Shown: piece after piece, positions 326 through 62,983 of the stretch
How the letters are laid out: the number at the start of each line of letters is the position of its first letter
How positions within the stretch are numbered: position 1 is the first letter of the stretch
DNA from: Escherichia coli
Lineage (GTDB): Bacteria > Pseudomonadota > Gammaproteobacteria > Enterobacterales > Enterobacteriaceae
Length of the DNA stretch: 64,000 nucleotides
Direction: 5' to 3' (one strand)
Assembly (NCBI RefSeq): GCF_044324875.1
Contig: NZ_CP172185.1
Notes under the pieces: model-generated
The model's input: the letters and a program-made list of their open reading frames with translations, nothing else
What the model was told of the DNA's origin: nothing
The model's database searches: none
Position numbers and translations under genes: made by a program

Positions 326-3716
<3,391 letters not shown>

Positions 3717-4860: not shown

Positions 4861-5967
4861 ATGTTTCATCGCTTATGGACGTTAATCCGCAAAGAGTTGC
4901 AGTCGCTGCTGCGCGAACCGCAAACCCGCGCGATTCTTATTTTACCCGTGCTGATTCAGGTGATCCTGTTCCCGTTCGCCGCCACGCTGGAAGTGACTAA
5001 CGCCACCATCGCCATCTACGATGAAGATAACGGCGAGCATTCGGTGGAGCTGACCCAACGTTTTGCCCGCGCCAGCGCCTTTACTCATGTGCTGCTGCTG
5101 AAAAGCCCACAGGAGATCCGCCCAACCATCGACACACAAAAGGCGTTACTACTGGTGCGTTTCCCGGCTGACTTCTCGCGCAAACTGGATACCTTCCAGA
5201 CCGCGCCGTTGCAGTTGATCCTCGACGGGCGTAACTCCAACAGTGCGCAAATTGCCGCCAACTACCTGCAACAGATCGTCAAAAATTATCAGCAGGAGCT
5301 GCTGGAAGGAAAACCGAAACCTAACAACAGCGAGCTGGTGGTACGCAACTGGTATAACCCGAATCTCGACTACAAATGGTTTGTGGTGCCGTCGCTGATC
5401 GCCATGATCACCACTATCGGCGTAATGATCGTCACTTCACTTTCTGTTGCCCGCGAACGTGAACAAGGTACGCTCGATCAGTTACTGGTTTCGCCGCTCA
5501 CCACCTGGCAGATATTCATCGGCAAGGCCGTACCGGCATTAATTGTCGCCACCTTCCAGGCCACCATTGTGCTGGCGATTGGTATCTGGGCGTATCAAAT
5601 CCCCTTCGCCGGATCGCTGGCGCTGTTCTACTTTACGATGGTGATTTACGGTTTATCGCTGGTGGGATTCGGTCTGTTGATTTCATCACTCTGCTCGACA
5701 CAACAGCAGGCGTTTATCGGCGTGTTTGTTTTTATGATGCCCGCCATTCTCCTTTCCGGTTACGTTTCGCCGGTGGAAAACATGCCAGTATGGCTGCAAA
5801 ACCTGACGTGGATTAACCCTATTCGCCACTTTACGGACATTACCAAGCAGATTTATTTGAAGGATGCGAGTCTGGATATTGTGTGGAATAGTTTGTGGCC
5901 GCTACTGGTGATAACGGCCACGACAGGGTCAGCGGCGTACGCGATGTTTAGACGTAAGGTGATGTAA
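4861..5967 (+). CDS. ybhR: ABC-2 family transporter permease YbhR
   Basis: 368 aa multi-TM paralog of YbhS; last gene of operon. Confidence 0.9.
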
Positions 5968-6339
5968 CTTCTTATCTTTCGCCAGCAAAGACACTACCGC
6001 CGGGCCGGCAAGGATTGCCAGCCCTGCAATTGCCAGCAAAAAGTTGTTTTCCAGTACGCGGGACAACAGCCACAGCACAATCAGCGCTGCGCCAAAATAC
6101 CAGGTCGTGGTCAGCTCTTCCAGCACGTCTGCCACCTCACGCCAGCGTTGCTCGGGGTGGCGCTGAAACACCAGCATCATCACTACCGTGACACAATACA
6201 GTGCGCATAATCCCACGCCGACGTGAACCAGAGTCTTACTCATCCAGCCCACCACCAGCAGCGCCACTACCAGTAAATGCAACATAATCTGCCAGCAACT
6301 TAGACCCGTTGCGACACGAACACGTTGTTGCCACTTCAT
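5929..6339 (-). CDS. ybhQ: Inner membrane protein YbhQ
   Basis: 136 aa, four hydrophobic segments; conserved position between ybhR and ybhP. Confidence 0.8.
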
Positions 6340-6471: not shown

Positions 6472-7233
6472 ATGCCCGATCAAACACAACAATTTTCGTT
6501 CAAGGTGCTCACCATCAATATTCACAAAGGCTTTACCGCGTTTAACCGACGCTTCATTTTGCCGGAACTTCGCGACGCCGTGCGTACCGTCAGCGCCGAT
6601 ATTGTTTGCCTGCAGGAAGTGATGGGCGCGCACGAAGTTCATCCGCTGCATGTGGAAAACTGGCCCGATACCTCGCACTACGAGTTTCTCGCCGACACCA
6701 TGTGGAGCGATTTCGCCTACGGTCGCAATGCCGTATACCCGGAAGGACATCACGGTAACGCCGTTCTTTCACGTTATCCCATTGAACATTATGAGAATCG
6801 TGATGTTTCGGTCGATGGTGCGGAAAAGCGCGGCGTGCTCTACTGCCGCATTGTGCCGCCGATGACCGGGAAAGCGATTCATGTGATGTGCGTACATCTG
6901 GGCCTGCGTGAGGCGCACCGTCAGGCGCAGCTTGCGATGCTCGCCGAATGGGTGAATGAGCTGCCGGACGGCGAACCGGTATTGGTGGCGGGTGATTTCA
7001 ACGACTGGCGGCAAAAAGCTAATCATCCGTTAAAAGTGCAGGCCGGGCTGGATGAGATATTTACCCGCGCCCACGGACGCCCGGCGCGCACGTTTCCGGT
7101 GCAATTTCCTCTACTACGACTGGACAGGATCTACGTCAAAAATGCCAGCGCCAGCGCGCCAACCGCGTTGCCGCTGCGGACATGGCGACACCTTTCTGAT
7201 CATGCCCCTTTAAGTGCGGAGATTCATTTATGA
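6472..7233 (+). CDS. ybhP: Endonuclease/exonuclease/phosphatase family protein YbhP
   Basis: 253 aa; EEP-fold signature residues; gene order. Confidence 0.85.
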
Positions 7234-8471
7234 AATGTAGCTGGCGCGAAGGCAATAAGATCCAGTTGCTGGAAAACGGCGAGCAATATTATCCCGCGGT
7301 GTTTAAGGCGATTGGCGAGGCGCAAGAACGTATCATTCTTGAAACGTTTATCTGGTTTGAGGATGACGTCGGCAAACAGCTGCATGCGGCGCTACTGGCA
7401 GCAGCACAACGCGGGGTTAAAGCGGAAGTCTTGCTGGATGGCTACGGTTCGCCGGATCTCAGCGATGAGTTTGTCAATGAACTGACGGCAGCTGGCGTGG
7501 TGTTCCGCTACTACGATCCCCGCCCTCGCCTTTTTGGTATGCGCACCAATGTGTTTCGCCGGATGCATCGCAAAATTGTGGTGATCGACGCGCGTATCGC
7601 CTTTATTGGCGGGCTGAATTACTCCGCCGAGCATATGTCCAGCTACGGTCCGGAGGCTAAACAGGATTACGCGGTACGCCTCGAAGGGCCGATTGTCGAA
7701 GATATTCTCCAGTTTGAGCTGGAAAACCTGCCAGGACAGAGCGCGGCACGACGCTGGTGGCGACGTCATCATAAAGCAGAAGAGAACCGCCAGCCGGGAG
7801 AAGCGCAGGTATTGCTGGTCTGGCGCGATAACGAAGAACATCGCGATGATATCGAACGCCACTATCTGAAAATGCTCACTCAGGCGCGGCGAGAAGTCAT
7901 TATCGCCAACGCCTACTTCTTCCCCGGCTATCGATTTTTACACGCCTTGCGTAAAGCGGCACGGCGCGGGGTGCGGATCAAACTGATCATTCAGGGCGAA
8001 CCGGATATGCCGATTGTCAGAGTCGGCGCGCGCTTGCTGTATAACTATCTGGTTAAAGGCGGCGTTCAGGTGTTTGAGTACCGCCGCCGTCCGCTCCACG
8101 GCAAAGTGGCATTGATGGACGATCACTGGGCGACGGTAGGGTCCAGTAATCTCGATCCGCTCAGTTTGTCACTGAATCTCGAAGCAAATGTCATCATCCA
8201 CGATCGTCATTTTAACCAGACGCTGCGTGATAATCTAAACGGCATTATCGCCGCAGATTGTCAGCAGGTCGATGAAACCATGCTGCCGAAACGCACCTGG
8301 TGGAACCTGACTAAAAGCGTGCTGGCCTTCCACTTTTTACGCCACTTCCCGGCTCTGGTGGGCTGGCTTCCGGCACACACACCACGTCTGGCGCAGGTTG
8401 ACCCGCCCGCCCAACCGACAATGGAAACGCAGGATCGGGTAGAAACTGAAAACACGGGGGTAAAACCCTGA
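7230..8471 (+). CDS. clsB: Cardiolipin synthase B (phospholipase D family)
   Basis: 413 aa with two HxK(x)4D motifs (HRKIVVID..., HGKVALMDD...); overlaps ybhP stop. Confidence 0.9.
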
Positions 8472-23581: not shown

Positions 23582-23596
23582 TTAGTATAAAAAAGC
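23582..23596. repeat. Prophage attachment core, bio-proximal junction (attR): ttagtataaaaaagc
   Basis: Exact 15-bp lambda common core; identical copy at 62969..62983; flanked on the phage side by Int arm-type sites (cagtcactat, gtgacctg). Confidence 0.9.
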
Positions 23597-23784: not shown

Positions 23785-23939
23785 TCATCAAACATATCGC
23801 ACTCCAGAGAAGCACAACACCTTGCAGTCCAGTGCAAAGCTTTGTGTACCAGAGTTTTCCTCATCAACTACCGCAAGTATCGATCGATTGAGACTTGGAT
23901 GATAGACTTCATACCTTTCAGAACTCATTGATTAAATAA

Positions 23940-24302
23940 ATGTTAAATATATTTGCAAGGTACACCTCGATTGGTGTGCTGAACACACTTATACACTGGG
24001 TGGTTTTTGGTGTATGTATCTATGCCGCGCATACCAATCAGGCTCTGGCAAACTTCGCAGGTTTCGTTGTGGCTGTGAGTTTTAGCTTCTTCGCGAATGC
24101 AAAATTCACATTCAAAGCATCAACTACAACGATGCGCTACATGTTATATGTCGGGTTCATGGGAACACTGAGTGCTACTGTTGGATGGGCTGCTGATAGA
24201 TGCGCACTTCCCCCGATGATAACTCTTGTCACCTTCTCCGCCATCAGCCTGGTGTGCGGTTTCGTCTATTCAAAGTTCATTGTCTTTAGGGATGCGAAAT
24301 GA
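23940..24302 (+). CDS. gtrA: Bactoprenol-linked glucose translocase (flippase) GtrA
   Basis: 120 aa, four hydrophobic segments; first gene of a three-gene gtr cassette. Confidence 0.8.
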
Positions 24303-25228
24303 AAATTTCTTTAGTCGTTCCGGTCTTTAACGAAGAGGCCACGATACCTATTTTTTATAAAACCGTGCGCGAATTTGAAGGGCTTCAGCAGCATGAAGTC
24401 GAGATAGTCTTCATAAACGATGGCAGCAAAGACGCTACAGAATCAATTATCAACGAGCTTGCTGTTGCCGACCCGCTTGTGGTTTCGCTGTCGTTCACAC
24501 GTAACTTCGGCAAAGAACCCGCCCTGTTCGCAGGTCTGGACCATGCTACCGGGGAGGCAATTATCCCGATTGACGTTGATCTGCAAGACCCTATCGAAGT
24601 TATTCCTCACTTGATAGAGAAATGGCAGGCCGGTGCAGATATGGTTCTGGCTAAACGCTCTGACCGCTCCACTGACAGCAGGCTGAAGCGTAAATCTGCT
24701 GAGTGGTTCTATAAACTTCATAACAAAATCAGCAACCCTCAGATAGAAGAGAATGTTGGCGACTTCCGGCTCATGTCTCGCGAAGTAGTAGAAAATATTA
24801 AGCTCATGCCAGAACGAAACCTGTTTATGAAGGGTGTGCTGAGCTGGGTTGGTGGTCGAACCGATGTCGTAGAATATGCGCGAGCAGAACGCGTTGCAGG
24901 AAGCACAAAGTTCAATGGATGGAAGCTATGGAACTTGGCGCTGGAAGGGATCACTAGCTTCTCAACATTCCCGCTTCGCATGTGGACCTATATTGGGTTA
25001 TTTATTGCATGTATATCATTTACATACGGTTCATGGATGATAATTGATAAATTAATTTTTGGTAATAATGTACCTGGATACCCTTCAATTCTTGTATCAA
25101 TATTGTTTCTTGGCGGCGTACAACTAATTGGTATTGGTGTACTTGGAGAGTACATAGGACGTATTTATATTGAAGTTAAGCAGCGCCCAAGATATGTTTT
25201 AAAGGATCAGAAAAATGATTGCAAATAA
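24299..25228 (+). CDS. gtrB: Bactoprenol glucosyltransferase GtrB (GT2 family)
   Basis: 309 aa; N-terminal GT2 domain with DxD-type motifs (NDGSKD, DVDLQD), C-terminal TM helices; 4-bp overlap with gtrA. Confidence 0.85.
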
Positions 25229-26702
25229 AAACAAAACACCTTTCCATTGGTTCTTGATATCTGTTTTTATATATTTCACCCCCATCATCATGGCAAATAT
25301 TCATTATGTAGATGATCAGGGAAGAGCTATATGGGGGTATACTGGATGGGCTAGGGATGGTAGACCTTTGGCTGAAATGTTGATGATTGCATTGAATTTC
25401 AACATGCACATAACGGACTTATTCCCATTTCCTGCAATATTATCAGTATTTTTGATATCTGTTTGCCTGTATTTTTTTAGCAGGATGTTTATATCGACAG
25501 ATAATAAATTTATTGGACTGTTGGTTCCTCTTGGTATTTTATCAAGCCCATTTTTAATTGAAAATGCAATGTATCGCTTTGATGTTTTACCGATGTTCAT
25601 AAGTATTGCATTGTCATTCTCAGTTGTAATATTTAATTTCAAAAAGACAATTTTAAATATTTCTTTTGCCGCCCTGTTAACATTATTTATATTGTCTATA
25701 TACCAAGCATCATTAAATTTCATGCTGGTTATTATTCTGTGTAAATATATTTACATGTACTTTAACTCAGATAGTAACAGACATCTATTAACTTACCTCA
25801 TAGAAAAGACGGTATCATTAGTTATAGGTGTTGCATTATATTTTTTGGTGGTTATTCCTTTATTTTTAACTGTTGTTGGGGACCCGGATCACCCATCAAT
25901 TAAAACTGAAGGCATTTTTTCAGTTATATATGAAAACTTAAAATTTTATCTTCATTCAATATCTAGTGGTATTTTTGGGGAATCAGGACGAGTTGCGTTT
26001 ATAGTAATATTTTTATTTTTCATTGCAATGACGACATTCATCGCGCTAAAGAAATCAATACCTAATAAAAGTATTACTGGTATTATTAATTTTTTAATTA
26101 CAATAACATCACCAGTAACAGCTTTGATATTGTCTTTTGCTACTCTATTACCACTTCAGCATCACATCGACGCCCCAAGAGTGATGATCGGTTTTTCTGC
26201 TACGATGTTGTTCTTATTCATGATTGTTTATCTTTTCTCGCGAGAAACAAAAAATTCAATAACATATATACTTGTAATTCCTCTGATTTATGTTTTTGGT
26301 TTTTTATGTTCATACACAAATGCAATGACAGAAGAAAAAAACATAACCACAGTTCTGTTTCATCAGATTAAAAATGATGCTTTCGAGTTAAGCGGAAAAA
26401 CAAATCAGATACTTATTTTTAATGGTAAAAAGAAAGACAATGATGTTTTTGTAAACGCACGAAATAATTACCCGTTAATATCTAGATTTTTCCCAGAGTA
26501 TTTCTATAATTGGGATTGGCCATTCCCTTATATGAATAGAGTTGGAGTTTACTTTAAACACCCTGGGAATACAAACATTGCAAGTGTGTTAAATGAAAAA
26601 ACCTTTTGCTCAACCGCAAAGATTAAAAGAGCATATGAATATAACTTATACTCATATGATGATATTATTGTAGTTGATTTTGACAAAAACATTTGTCAGT
26701 GA
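25215..26702 (+). CDS. Serotype-specific O-antigen glucosyltransferase (Gtr type-specific, polytopic)
   Basis: 495 aa, many TM segments, strongly AT-rich, third position of gtr cassette. Confidence 0.7.
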
Positions 26703-26882
26703 TTATTATGGCGCATCGATACTTTATATTGATGCGCCATAAATTAATCAAGTATTTGTTCCATCAGCTCGCTGCCATGATGAAGCTGTGCCGTTATACC
26801 ATATTGGAAGACCTAGCGTTGTATCGTAGTATTCAACTGGCACAATTGGAGAGACAGGCCTCTGCGCAGTTGTACCATATAA

Positions 26883-27032
26883 CAAAGATGTCAACGGAGA
26901 GGTGTAGGCCGCAAACTGACTGATGATGAAAAAAGGCGGCTGAATGCGGTACTCGACTACATCGACGCAGTGACAGCAGTTGATGCTGCCCCTGCGCCTG
27001 ATATCAACTGGCCCGCTCCCCCGGTTGCGTAG
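26883..27032 (+). pseudogene. Remnant of a tail-fiber-assembly (Tfa) C-terminus in inverted orientation
   Basis: Plus-strand frame encodes ...[38 protein letters not shown], homologous to the C-terminus of the adjacent minus-strand Tfa; no N-terminal part present. Confidence 0.45.
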
Positions 27033-27408
27033 GCCACTCTATTTCGGGTGCCGCTGAGGTATCAACACGGTTCAGCAGTACCCTGTATTTTTTCCACGCC
27101 AGCAGTAACGTCTGTTCATCGTCTGTCGCCATTTCCAAATCAACGGCATCCTGCAGCGGTGCTATTGCGTTATTTGCTACGGTCAGTAGTGCTGATTTCT
27201 GCAGCTCAGCCTCCGCAACTAACGCGTTGTGAGAGCGTTCTGGGGGAGGTGGCGCGGTAAATACTCCGTCTGAATATGACCAACCGATGCCAGCATCGCC
27301 GTTTAACGGAACTAAATTACCAGCCTCTGGTTTCCATTCAGAAATTCCGTCCCAGATAATGACATCAATAACAACGTTATTATCAACAACTGCATAAACA
27401 TCATTCAT
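27004..27408 (-). CDS. Tail fiber assembly protein (Tfa chaperone)
   Basis: 134 aa; N-terminal [11 protein letters not shown]... and C-terminal WPxxP motif; immediately downstream of the tail fiber gene. Confidence 0.75.
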
Positions 27409-28341
27409 TTACATGTACTCCCGAATTACCAGCACGCCATTAGCTCCGTGCCCGCCACGTCCTGACGTGTGTGAATAGCTATTATCGTATGCACCCCCGC
27501 CGCCGGAGCCAGAGCAAACTCCAGAATTACCGCTCAGTTGCCCAGCGCGGCCGCCGCCACCCCAATAGCTCGATGCCCCATTGCCTACTAATAGCGCCTG
27601 GCCCGCCTGTCCGTCTGAACCGTCTCCGCCTTGTTCAGTTTTATAACCGCCAGAGCCTGAACCACCGAGCCCGCCAGCGGTATTTGTAGCGCCGCCCCAT
27701 TGCCCACCCTGGCCGCCGAGCGCAGTTAATGTCATGAACGAACTATGACCGCCATTATTTCCAGACCCTGGCCCATTGGCACCACTACCACCGCTACCAA
27801 TTGTCACTGTATAGGTCCCTGGCCCGGCATCGTTGTCTGTCGCATAAATAGTGGCAAAAACAGTACCTCCGGCTCCTCCGCCAGCCCCTGAAAATGTCTG
27901 ATTTGCGTTCTCCGCGTTACATCCACCGCCACCGCCGCCCGCCGCAGTCAGAATAACGTCAATTCGTTTTACGTCAGCTGGCCACGTATATGAACCCGAC
28001 GATGAAAAAACGACAGTTTTGCTGTAACGCCCCGAGCCATCTCCCAAACCAAGGTTTTCGAGAGCCGTTTTCACCGTGCCATCCGATTTGATATCGCCAA
28101 ACGGATTCTTGCGGCTTAACAGCAGCTCACGAAGCGCTGTAAGCAACTGGTCATGCCGCCCCTTCTCCAGGCTGGCACCGGATGCCTCCACCACGCTGCA
28201 AAGCTCCTCCTGCAACATGTCAAAGTAGTCATCATCCAGATCGGTGGCAGGCGTGCCGGTCTGGGGGTTACCACGGGTAAAACCGTTCTTACCCGCGCCG
28301 AACTTATCCTTCTGCGCGGTTTTCGTGTCTATACGATGCAT
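27409..28341 (-). CDS. Tail fiber protein with glycine-rich repeat region
   Basis: 310 aa; long Gly-rich low-complexity stretch; between DUF2313 baseplate gene and tfa. Confidence 0.7.
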
Positions 28342-61514: not shown

Positions 61515-61628
61515 TAGAGCCATACAGCCTCACACTCGATGAGGCCTGTTCATTGCTCAATGATATCCAGACCTACCATCGCCGCATCAATGCGGCTTTT
61601 TCTTGCGTGTAATTGCGGAGACTTTGCG

Positions 61629-61847
61629 ATGTACTTGACACTTCAGGAGTGGAACGCTCGCCAGCGACGCCCAAGAAGCCTTGAAACAGTTCGTCGATGG
61701 GTGCGCGAATGCAGGATATTCCCTCCTCCGGTTAAGGATGGAAGAGAGTATCTGTTCCACGAATCAGCGGTAAAGGTTGACTTAAATCGACCAGTAACAG
61801 GTAGCCTTTTGAAGAGGATCAGAAATGGGAAGAAGGCGAAGTCATGA
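61629..61847 (+). CDS. xis: Excisionase Xis (lambda type)
   Basis: 72 aa from ATG 61629 (MYLTLQEWNARQRRPRSLETVRRWVRECRIFPPPVKDGREYLFHESAVKVDLNRPVTGSLLKRIRNGKKAKS), matching lambda Xis; overlaps int start. Confidence 0.9.
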   Translation: MYLTLQEWNARQRRPRSLETVRRWVRECRIFPPPVKDGREYLFHESAVKVDLNRPVTGSLLKRIRNGKKAKS

Positions 61848-62895
61848 GCGCCGGGATTTACCCCCTAACCTTTATATAAGAAACAATGGATATTACTGCT
61901 ACAGGGACCCAAGGACGGGTAAAGAGTTCGGATTAGGCAGAGACAGGAGGATAGCAATTACTGAAGCAATACAGGCAAACATTGAGTTATTTTCAGGACA
62001 CAAACACAAGCCTCTGACAGCGAGAATCAACAGTGATAATTCTGTTACGTTACATTCATGGCTTGATCGCTACGAAAAAATCCTCGCCAGCAGAGGAATC
62101 AAGCAGAAGACACTTATAAATTACATGAGCAAAATTAAAGCAATAAGGAGGGGGCTACCTGATGTTCCACTTGAAGACATCACCACAAAAGAAATTGCAG
62201 CAATGCTCAATGGATACATAGACGAGGGCAAGGCGGCGTCAGCCAAGTTAATCAGATCAACACTGAGCGATGCATTCCGAGAGGCAATAGCTGAAGGCCA
62301 TATAACAACAAACCCGGTCGCTGCCACTCGCGCAGCAAAATCAGAGGTAAGGAGATCAAGACTTACGGCTGACGAATACCTGAAAATTTATCAAGCAGCA
62401 GAATCATCACCATGTTGGCTTAGACTTGCAATGGAACTGGCTGTTGTTACCGGGCAGCGAGTTGGTGATTTATGCGAAATGAAGTGGTCTGATATCGTAG
62501 ATGGATATCTTTATGTCGAGCAAAGCAAAACAGGCGTAAAAATTGCCATCCCAACAGCATTGCATGTTGATGCTCTCGGAATATCAATGAAGGAAACACT
62601 TGATAAATGCAAAGAGATTCTTGGCGGAGAAACCATAATTGCATCTACTCGTCGCGAACCGCTTTCATCCGGCACAGTATCAAGGTATTTTATGCGCGCA
62701 CGAAAAGCATCAGGTCTTTCCTTCGAAGGGGATCCGCCTACCTTTCACGAGTTGCGCAGTTTGTCTGCAAGACTCTATGAGAAGCAGATAAGCGATAAGT
62801 TTGCTCAACATCTTCTCGGGCATAAGTCGGACACCATGGCATCACAGTATCGTGATGACAGAGGCAGGGAGTGGGACAAAATTGAAATCAAATAA
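61825..62895 (+). CDS. int: Integrase Int (lambda-type tyrosine recombinase)
   Basis: 356 aa, essentially lambda Int (MGRRRSHERRDLPPNLYIRNNGYYCYRDPRTGKEF... with R-H-R-Y catalytic residues); adjacent to the gal-proximal att core. Confidence 0.95.
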   Translation: MGRRRSHERRDLPPNLYIRNNGYYCYRDPRTGKEFGLGRDRRIAITEAIQANIELFSGHKHKPLTARINSDNSVTLHSWLDRYEKILASRGIKQKTLINYMSKIKAIRRGLPDVPLEDITTKEIAAMLNGYIDEGKAASAKLIRSTLSDAFREAIAEGHITTNPVAATRAAKSEVRRSRLTADEYLKIYQAAESSPCWLRLAMELAVVTGQRVGDLCEMKWSDIVDGYLYVEQSKTGVKIAIPTALHVDALGISMKETLDKCKEILGGETIIASTRREPLSSGTVSRYFMRARKASGLSFEGDPPTFHELRSLSARLYEKQISDKFAQHLLGHKSDTMASQYRDDRGREWDKIEIK

Positions 62896-62968: not shown

Positions 62969-62983
62969 TTAGTATAAAAAAGC
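62969..62983. repeat. Prophage attachment core, int-proximal junction (attL): ttagtataaaaaagc
   Basis: Identical to the 23582..23596 copy; phage-side arm carries lambda P-arm-like sequence (gactgatagtgacctgttcgttgcaacaaattgataagcaatgc). Confidence 0.9.

Follow-up and report, generated by a model that had tools for sequence, protein, structure and literature searches.

A truncated, inverted tail-fiber assembly gene beside an O-antigen glucosylation cassette in an Escherichia coli prophage: probable remnant of a Pin/Gin-type invertible segment

We analyzed a 64-kb stretch of Escherichia coli DNA (64,000 nucleotides, hereafter the window) that contains a prophage of 39.4 kb bounded on each side by an exact copy of the lambda att core (GCTTTTTTATACTAA; two exact matches against 0 expected). 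The genes bioA and ybhB lie to the left of the prophage, and a lambda-type integrase with an arm-binding domain is encoded together with Xis at its right end (61539..62895). Starting at the bio side, gtrA, gtrB, and gtrC come first, on the plus strand, and are followed on the minus strand by a tail-fiber assembly gene (tfa), a tail-fiber gene, and Mu-like baseplate genes whose products resemble Mu gp48, gp47, gp46, gp45, and gp44. The baseplate genes and the region encoding the fiber N-terminus are 96% identical in DNA sequence to those of phages SfV, SfI, SfII, and SfIV. The three gtr genes are consecutive open reading frames that encode, in order, a flippase-like GtrA, a family-2 glycosyltransferase GtrB, and a serotype-specific GtrC, the composition of an O-antigen glucosylation cassette. 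The features discussed below are collected in Table 1.

Table 1. Features of the tail-fiber locus and ends of the prophage, with positions in the window
Feature	Position	Strand	Remarks
Lambda att core, bio-side end	23582..23596	-	Exact match to GCTTTTTTATACTAA
gtrA	23940..24302	+	Pfam GtrA_DPMS_TM (PF04138)
gtrB	24299..25228	+	Pfam Glycos_transf_2 (PF00535)
gtrC	25215..26702	+	Pfam Glucos_trans_II (PF14264)
Hairpin, 16-bp stems	26706..26742	.	In the spacer separating the stop codons of gtrC and the tailspike stub; 94% complementary
3' stub of a P22-type tailspike gene	26748..~26906	-	Product ends YGTTAQRPVSPIVPVEYYDTTLGLPIWYNGTASSWQRADGTNT-stop; abuts the tfa' stub
First 8 codons of the 49-codon frame	26883..26906	+	Chance-open; antisense to the tailspike stub
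tfa' stub	26907..27032	+	Last 41 codons and stop of a TfaE-like tail-fiber assembly gene; pseudogene
Resident tail-fiber assembly gene, tfa	27004..27408	-	Intact, 134 aa; Caudo_TAP E=1.1e-32
Tail-fiber gene	27409..28341	-	310 aa; StfP-like constant part and glycine-rich variable tip, fused in frame
Orphan Pin/Gin-type crossover site, proximal	28040..28063	.	Inside the fiber gene, at the constant/variable boundary
Second lambda att core	62969..62983		Exact match

On the gtr side of the resident tfa, a plus-strand frame of 49 open codons (26883..27032) runs to a TAG at 27030-27032. As the initial annotation had described, this frame converges on the intact minus-strand tfa and overlaps it, the two genes sharing 29 bp at their 3' ends (27004..27032). 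The same annotation took the entire frame of about 49 codons for a Tfa C-terminus, and this holds for 41 of the 49 codons: only 26907..27032 (126 bp, beginning GRKLT...) is Tfa derived. The stub matches the Pfam Caudo_TAP model (PF02413) at profile positions 95-130 of 131 with E=4.7e-10 and a score of 40.2 bits, which exceeds the gathering cutoff of 22.1 bits for this model. In a tblastn search, residues 160-200 of TfaE from the e14 prophage match 26907..27029 with 68% identity (E=2e-12), and the corresponding identity to K-12 TfaS is 64%. The DNA alignment to e14 continues across the convergent junction and breaks at 26906/26907, the position at which homology to both e14 tfaE and K-12 tfaS ends. 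That the frame is open by chance and has no homology would account for the missing start codon and the fortuitous first 8 codons, but we give this reading practically no credence: the Caudo_TAP and TfaE matches refute it, thereby also disposing of the one objection that the initial annotation had raised against itself, and the conserved geometry of the overlap and the pseudogene call made by RefSeq/PGAP likewise argue against it.

RefSeq/PGAP annotates the identical sequence as a pseudogene from 26907 onward ("tail fiber assembly protein, incomplete, missing N-terminus"). Our analysis agrees with this call. An ORF listing with a minimum of 30 aa contained no ATG, GTG, or TTG start that yields at least 30 aa in the stub frame, and, relative to a complete tfa, the stub has kept the last 36-41 residues and has lost the start codon together with two thirds of the domain at the N-terminal end. 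Given that both the N-terminal part and the start codon are missing, the stub is a pseudogene, a non-coding relic in which only the last 29 nt are visibly constrained; on the opposite strand the same 29 nt specify the C-terminus of the resident Tfa with its stop codon, which explains their persistence. A present-day function for the stub region, as a small protein, a 3' UTR, or an antisense element for the tail operon, is very unlikely. The same stretch has been deposited elsewhere as a 38-aa "hypothetical protein" on 673 contigs, and it is 92-100% conserved among relatives, both of which might be taken to favor a function; however, this conservation does not rise above that of the flanking DNA (97-99%), there is no canonical start codon, the overlap is the only part under evident constraint, and neither an Rfam family nor a terminator was called on the stub.

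The convergent and overlapping position of the stub, together with the C-terminal Tfa motif that it has in common with its neighbor, might suggest that part of the resident tfa, its 3' end, was recently duplicated in inverted orientation. We regard such an origin as highly improbable, given that the stub is only 43% identical to the C-terminus of the resident Tfa (BLASTP, E=1e-6), as opposed to 68% to e14 TfaE and 64% to K-12 TfaS, and that a repeat search revealed no inverted DNA repeat linking 26907..27032 to the body of tfa. The low identity to the resident protein instead shows that the stub is an allele of its own, and no copy of the neighboring gene. A full-length copy of this allele was not present among 50,697 phage records searched by tblastn, in which the best matches were 73-77% identical, and a search of 5.8 billion proteins returned only fragments of 24-72 aa. 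The best full-length relatives of the allele are 68-77% identical. Since no genome was found to carry the exact full-length allele, the parental state described below is reconstructed from homologues rather than observed.

The resident Tfa is 95% identical in amino acid sequence to the Tfa encoded inside the intact invertible segment of L031, a P2-like prophage. The only Rfam match, to IS009 (RF02111; 27053..27241, minus strand; 48.8 bits, E=3e-9), lies within the resident gene and not in the stub; it is below the gathering score of 117 for this family and is most probably due to homology among tfa sequences, not to an RNA gene. The adjoining fiber gene is a chimera: amino acids 1-128 are 80% identical to e14 StfP, amino acids 114-307 match the Gly_rich_2 domain (E=8.5e-18), and residues 94-310 are 94% identical to the L031 cassette that adjoins pin. 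RefSeq/PGAP splits this 310-aa open reading frame (6707..7639 of the corresponding record, L001) into an "stfP pseudogene, missing C-terminus" and a "glycine-rich domain-containing protein"; the split looks like an artifact of a chimeric fiber joined at a crossover site. A scan with the crossover pattern TCTCNNAAACCNNGGTTTNNGAGA gave a single perfect match in the 64 kb, TCTCCCAAACCAAGGTTTTCGAGA at 28040..28063, where 0.02 would be expected by chance. On the coding strand the site reads CTCTCGAAAACCTTGGTTTGGGAGATGG, one base off the e14 site in stfP. The fiber gene loses its homology to e14 StfP, SfV, and ~1,800 E. coli genomes at 28032-28040, and its homology to the L031 cassette at 28061. Given that the site is in frame and lies where the homology of the relatives stops, we conclude that it marks the boundary between the constant and variable parts of the fiber.

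The search for residual crossover sites suggested in the initial annotation therefore recovered one perfect site; no second site was found anywhere in the window with up to three mismatches allowed. The absence of an invertase was also borne out, in that a tblastn search of the window for a PinE homologue yielded nothing better than E=2.7, and the gtr cassette (23940..26702) does occupy the side on which an invertase would be looked for. Of the parts of a Din-family segment, the locus thus has the in-frame site within the fiber gene and lacks the adjacent serine invertase and the pair of inverted sites. In place of two convergent tip-plus-chaperone cassettes, there is one complete cassette (27004..28040) and 126 bp of a second tfa, with no second tip. 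Given a single site and no invertase in cis, no inversion is expected at this locus.

The G segment of Mu and the C segment of P1, which are served by Gin and Cin, consist of a constant fiber part, a site within the fiber gene, and two convergent tip-plus-chaperone cassettes. The window resembles these well-established systems in design; unlike the window, which holds a locked remnant, both are functional and have an adjacent invertase and two sites. With the P segment of e14 (stfP-tfaP / tfaE-stfE / pinE), the window has in common a YmfQ-like baseplate gene followed by a StfP-like fiber N-terminus, a crossover site that differs by one base at the constant/variable boundary, and convergent tfa genes that overlap by 29 bp (in e14, L002, tfaP at 5133..5546 and tfaE at 5518..6120). 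The pseudogene tfaS of the K-12 prophage CPS-53 overlaps yfdK by the same 29 bp, and on both comparisons the arrangement is of the Gin/Pin type, as first proposed; the alignment to the e14 region that was called for at the outset likewise agrees, at the protein level and at the DNA level through the convergent junction. The inverted repeats of e14 have been shown experimentally to be TTGGTTTGGGAGAAGG, with 1,797 bp between them (PMC12529663), and our own repeat search of e14 also places 1,797 nt between the inverted repeats. Unlike e14, the window lacks pinE, the distal site, and the second fiber tip, its second tfa is reduced to 41 codons, its gtrABC genes occupy the position that pin and mcrA have in e14, and its glycine-rich tip is unrelated to the tips of StfP and StfE.

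Related prophages in which the invertase is intact, as had been anticipated, comprise e14, phage vB_EcoM-689R6, and L031. The first two share the YmfQ-like baseplate gene and the fiber N-terminus with the window, and both have pin. L031 matches the window over 27016..28061, that is, the fiber tip and tfa, at 96.9% nucleotide identity. In L031 the tip begins at a crossover site, and the gene immediately next to this site encodes a Pin-like invertase of the resolvase family that is 84% identical to PinE. A second crossover site of L031 lies in a convergent gene encoding a 504-aa fiber, so that e14 and L031 each have two sites. The invertible segment of L031 (5346..7243) carries the glycine-rich tip and tfa of the window on one side; the other side carries a different glycine-rich tip without a recognizable chaperone gene and is separated from tfa by a 160-bp spacer.

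On its left, the tfa' stub meets a second gene fragment. The minus-strand open reading frame 26748..26894 has 48 codons, and its frame runs on without a start codon to ~26906. It is a C-terminal fragment of a P22-type tailspike and not a gene: the last ~52 codons (~150 nt) remain, whereas the head-binding domain and the beta-helix body are absent. Over 26703..26825, the window shows 100% identity to the 3' end of a complete tailspike gene in a P22-like prophage (L004) of E. coli PSS-11, which encodes 588 aa with head-binding and beta-helix domains. The C-terminal motif of the tailspike, GTTAQRP...YYDTTLGLPIW, recurs in many phage tail-fiber and tailspike proteins. The hairpin between gtrC and the tailspike stub is conserved with the P22-like prophage and may be a bidirectional terminator; it has no T-run, and a terminator scan made no call on it.

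The identity to the PSS-11 prophage extends across the gtr genes. Over 23785..26831, the window is 98.9% identical to this prophage. The block takes in all three gtr genes, the spacer with the hairpin, and ~80 nt from the end of the tailspike gene, so that the gtrC allele and the end of the stub are common to the two. In PSS-11 the same gtrA-gtrB-gtrC genes converge on the complete tailspike gene; the gtr module therefore brings part of a tailspike gene along. In our comparison of E. coli and IMG/VR loci, prophages that are otherwise 97-99% identical carry four unrelated alleles of gtrC. Homology on the left breaks off at 25218-25238, within the 3' end of gtrB, and resumes on the right at 26750, 26761, or 26799, within the tailspike stub. 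Judging from these breakpoints, gtrC behaves as a swappable cassette, and the tailspike stub looks like a homology arm for its exchange.

The tfa' and tailspike stubs meet at about 26895-26906. A pattern scan found no match to the crossover site at this joint, which argues that it was made by illegitimate rather than invertase-mediated recombination. Of 5,426 complete E. coli genomes, 68 carry the joint, in every case intact, and it also occurs in ~25 IMG/VR prophage contigs. A distant blastn search across the joint recovered only the 68 whole-joint genomes and no unjoined parent among the 5,426.

We propose, with a probability of roughly 0.85, that the stub is the 3' end of a second, inverted tfa from a Pin/Gin-type (Din family) segment, which was cut and joined to the tailspike fragment and gtrCBA. 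What we observe directly are the homologies, the geometry of the convergent genes, a lone crossover site, and the lack of an invertase; the recombination event and the order in which it unfolded are what we infer from them. The original segment would have consisted of a constant fiber part, a crossover site, tip A and tfa A converging on tfa B and tip B, a second crossover site, and an invertase. Illegitimate recombination would then have cut tfa B ~41 codons before its stop and fused the cut end with ~150 nt from the 3' terminus of a P22-type tailspike gene, which travels with gtrCBA. Nothing remains of the 5' three quarters of tfa B, of fiber tip B, of the distal site, or of the invertase, and the fiber would thus be locked on its glycine-rich tip and the chaperone cognate to it.

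The K-12 cryptic prophage CPS-53 (yfdG-yfdH-yfdI / yodE / tfaS' / yfdK / yfdL; L088, 6498..7106) has an identical layout, in which gtrABC is followed by a brief spacer, an inverted and truncated tfa in plus-strand orientation, the resident tfa, and the fiber gene. Unlike the stub in the window, that of CPS-53 keeps 100 codons and is 94% identical to TfaE, the spacer holds yodE rather than a tailspike stub, and the prophage is integrated at argW and not at the lambda att site. Given the different breakpoints, the two truncations are probably separate events, and such tfa truncations appear, from the comparison of these sequences, to have happened more than once. The gene yodE (annotated "toxic protein") is a small minus-strand gene that sits between gtrABC and tfaS in CPS-53. 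We considered YodE as a homologue of the tailspike stub in view of its equal size and position, and rejected it because the sequences are unrelated. YodE resembles a repetitive beta-strand fragment and may itself be the relic of another gene.

The serotype-converting phages SfV, SfI, SfII, and SfIV have in common with the window the Mu-like baseplate genes, the fiber N-terminus, an orphan site, the placement of gtr between the fiber genes and attP, and the lack of an invertase. The inverted tfa stub and the tailspike stub are both absent from SfV, and its fiber tip, tfa, and gtrC differ from those of the window, as do its integrase and att site (thrW; PMC3636060). In the SfV fiber gene orf21 (L006), a perfect Pin/Gin-type site is located at 2950..2973, without an invertase or second cassette, and orphan crossover sites may be common in the SfV-like phage family.

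Given that SfV has an orphan site and gtr but no stub, a gtr-bearing, invertase-free backbone could have been the recipient of the fiber cassette. This leads to an alternative account, which we consider possible if somewhat doubtful, in which an SfV-like backbone of this kind gained its tip and tfa from the invertible segment of a donor phage. The left crossover would then have taken place in the fiber N-terminus or the site itself and the right one, illegitimate, 126 bp into the inverted tfa of the donor, and the switch would have belonged to the donor and not to the lineage of the prophage. SfV itself provides such a backbone, with the constant part, orphan site, tip, tfa, and gtr in place and neither invertase nor stub; the tip and tfa act as a mobile cassette, as is apparent from the 96.9% nucleotide identity shared with the P2-like phage; and it is precisely at the crossover site that homology to every relative is lost. 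However, CPS-53 has the same layout with another breakpoint (100 codons) and e14-type alleles, which repeated truncation of a resident segment fits equally well, and between import and loss in place the data favor neither order of events. No SfV-like prophage with the same tip, tfa, and an invertase was found at the lambda att site. The initial annotation had suggested that an ancestor possessed a fiber-switching system that was lost or replaced. A remnant of a fiber switch is indeed present; its attribution to an ancestor of this prophage is one of two alternatives, the switch having been either that of the backbone or that of a donor phage.

The orphan site lies in an expressed fiber gene, and we offer as a speculative and rather unlikely extension of the reading as a cut and joined tfa that Pin-family invertases of other prophages could use it, with the stubs serving as standing homology arms. 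In the case of the e14 P segment, PinQ, PinR, and PinE are each active in trans (PMC12529663). If the extension were true, new tips could now and then be captured, or prophages could undergo inversions with one another, through invertases acting in trans, and the tfa and tailspike stubs could let fiber and gtrC cassettes swap with P2-like and P22-like phages. The four gtrC alleles between fixed arms provide a hint of a homology-arm role in the case of gtrC.

Much of what we describe has precedent. The stub is already known as a RefSeq pseudogene, and the same layout is known in K-12 as tfaS; reading such a locus as a decayed Pin/Gin-type switch is a textbook step that would follow by analogy from e14, Mu, and P1. 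A literature search found no paper on this particular stub or lineage. The locus is a case of real but ordinary prophage mosaicism and reveals no new mechanism. Its history nonetheless explains several oddities of the RefSeq annotation, namely the tfa pseudogene, the small minus-strand open reading frame beside gtrC, and the artificial split of the fiber gene. What the locus offers is a clean, datable scar of module trade among temperate phages, in which a host-range switch was given up or never inherited and a locked fiber now adjoins an O-antigen-modifying cassette that came from, or is common to, a short-tailed P22-like phage.
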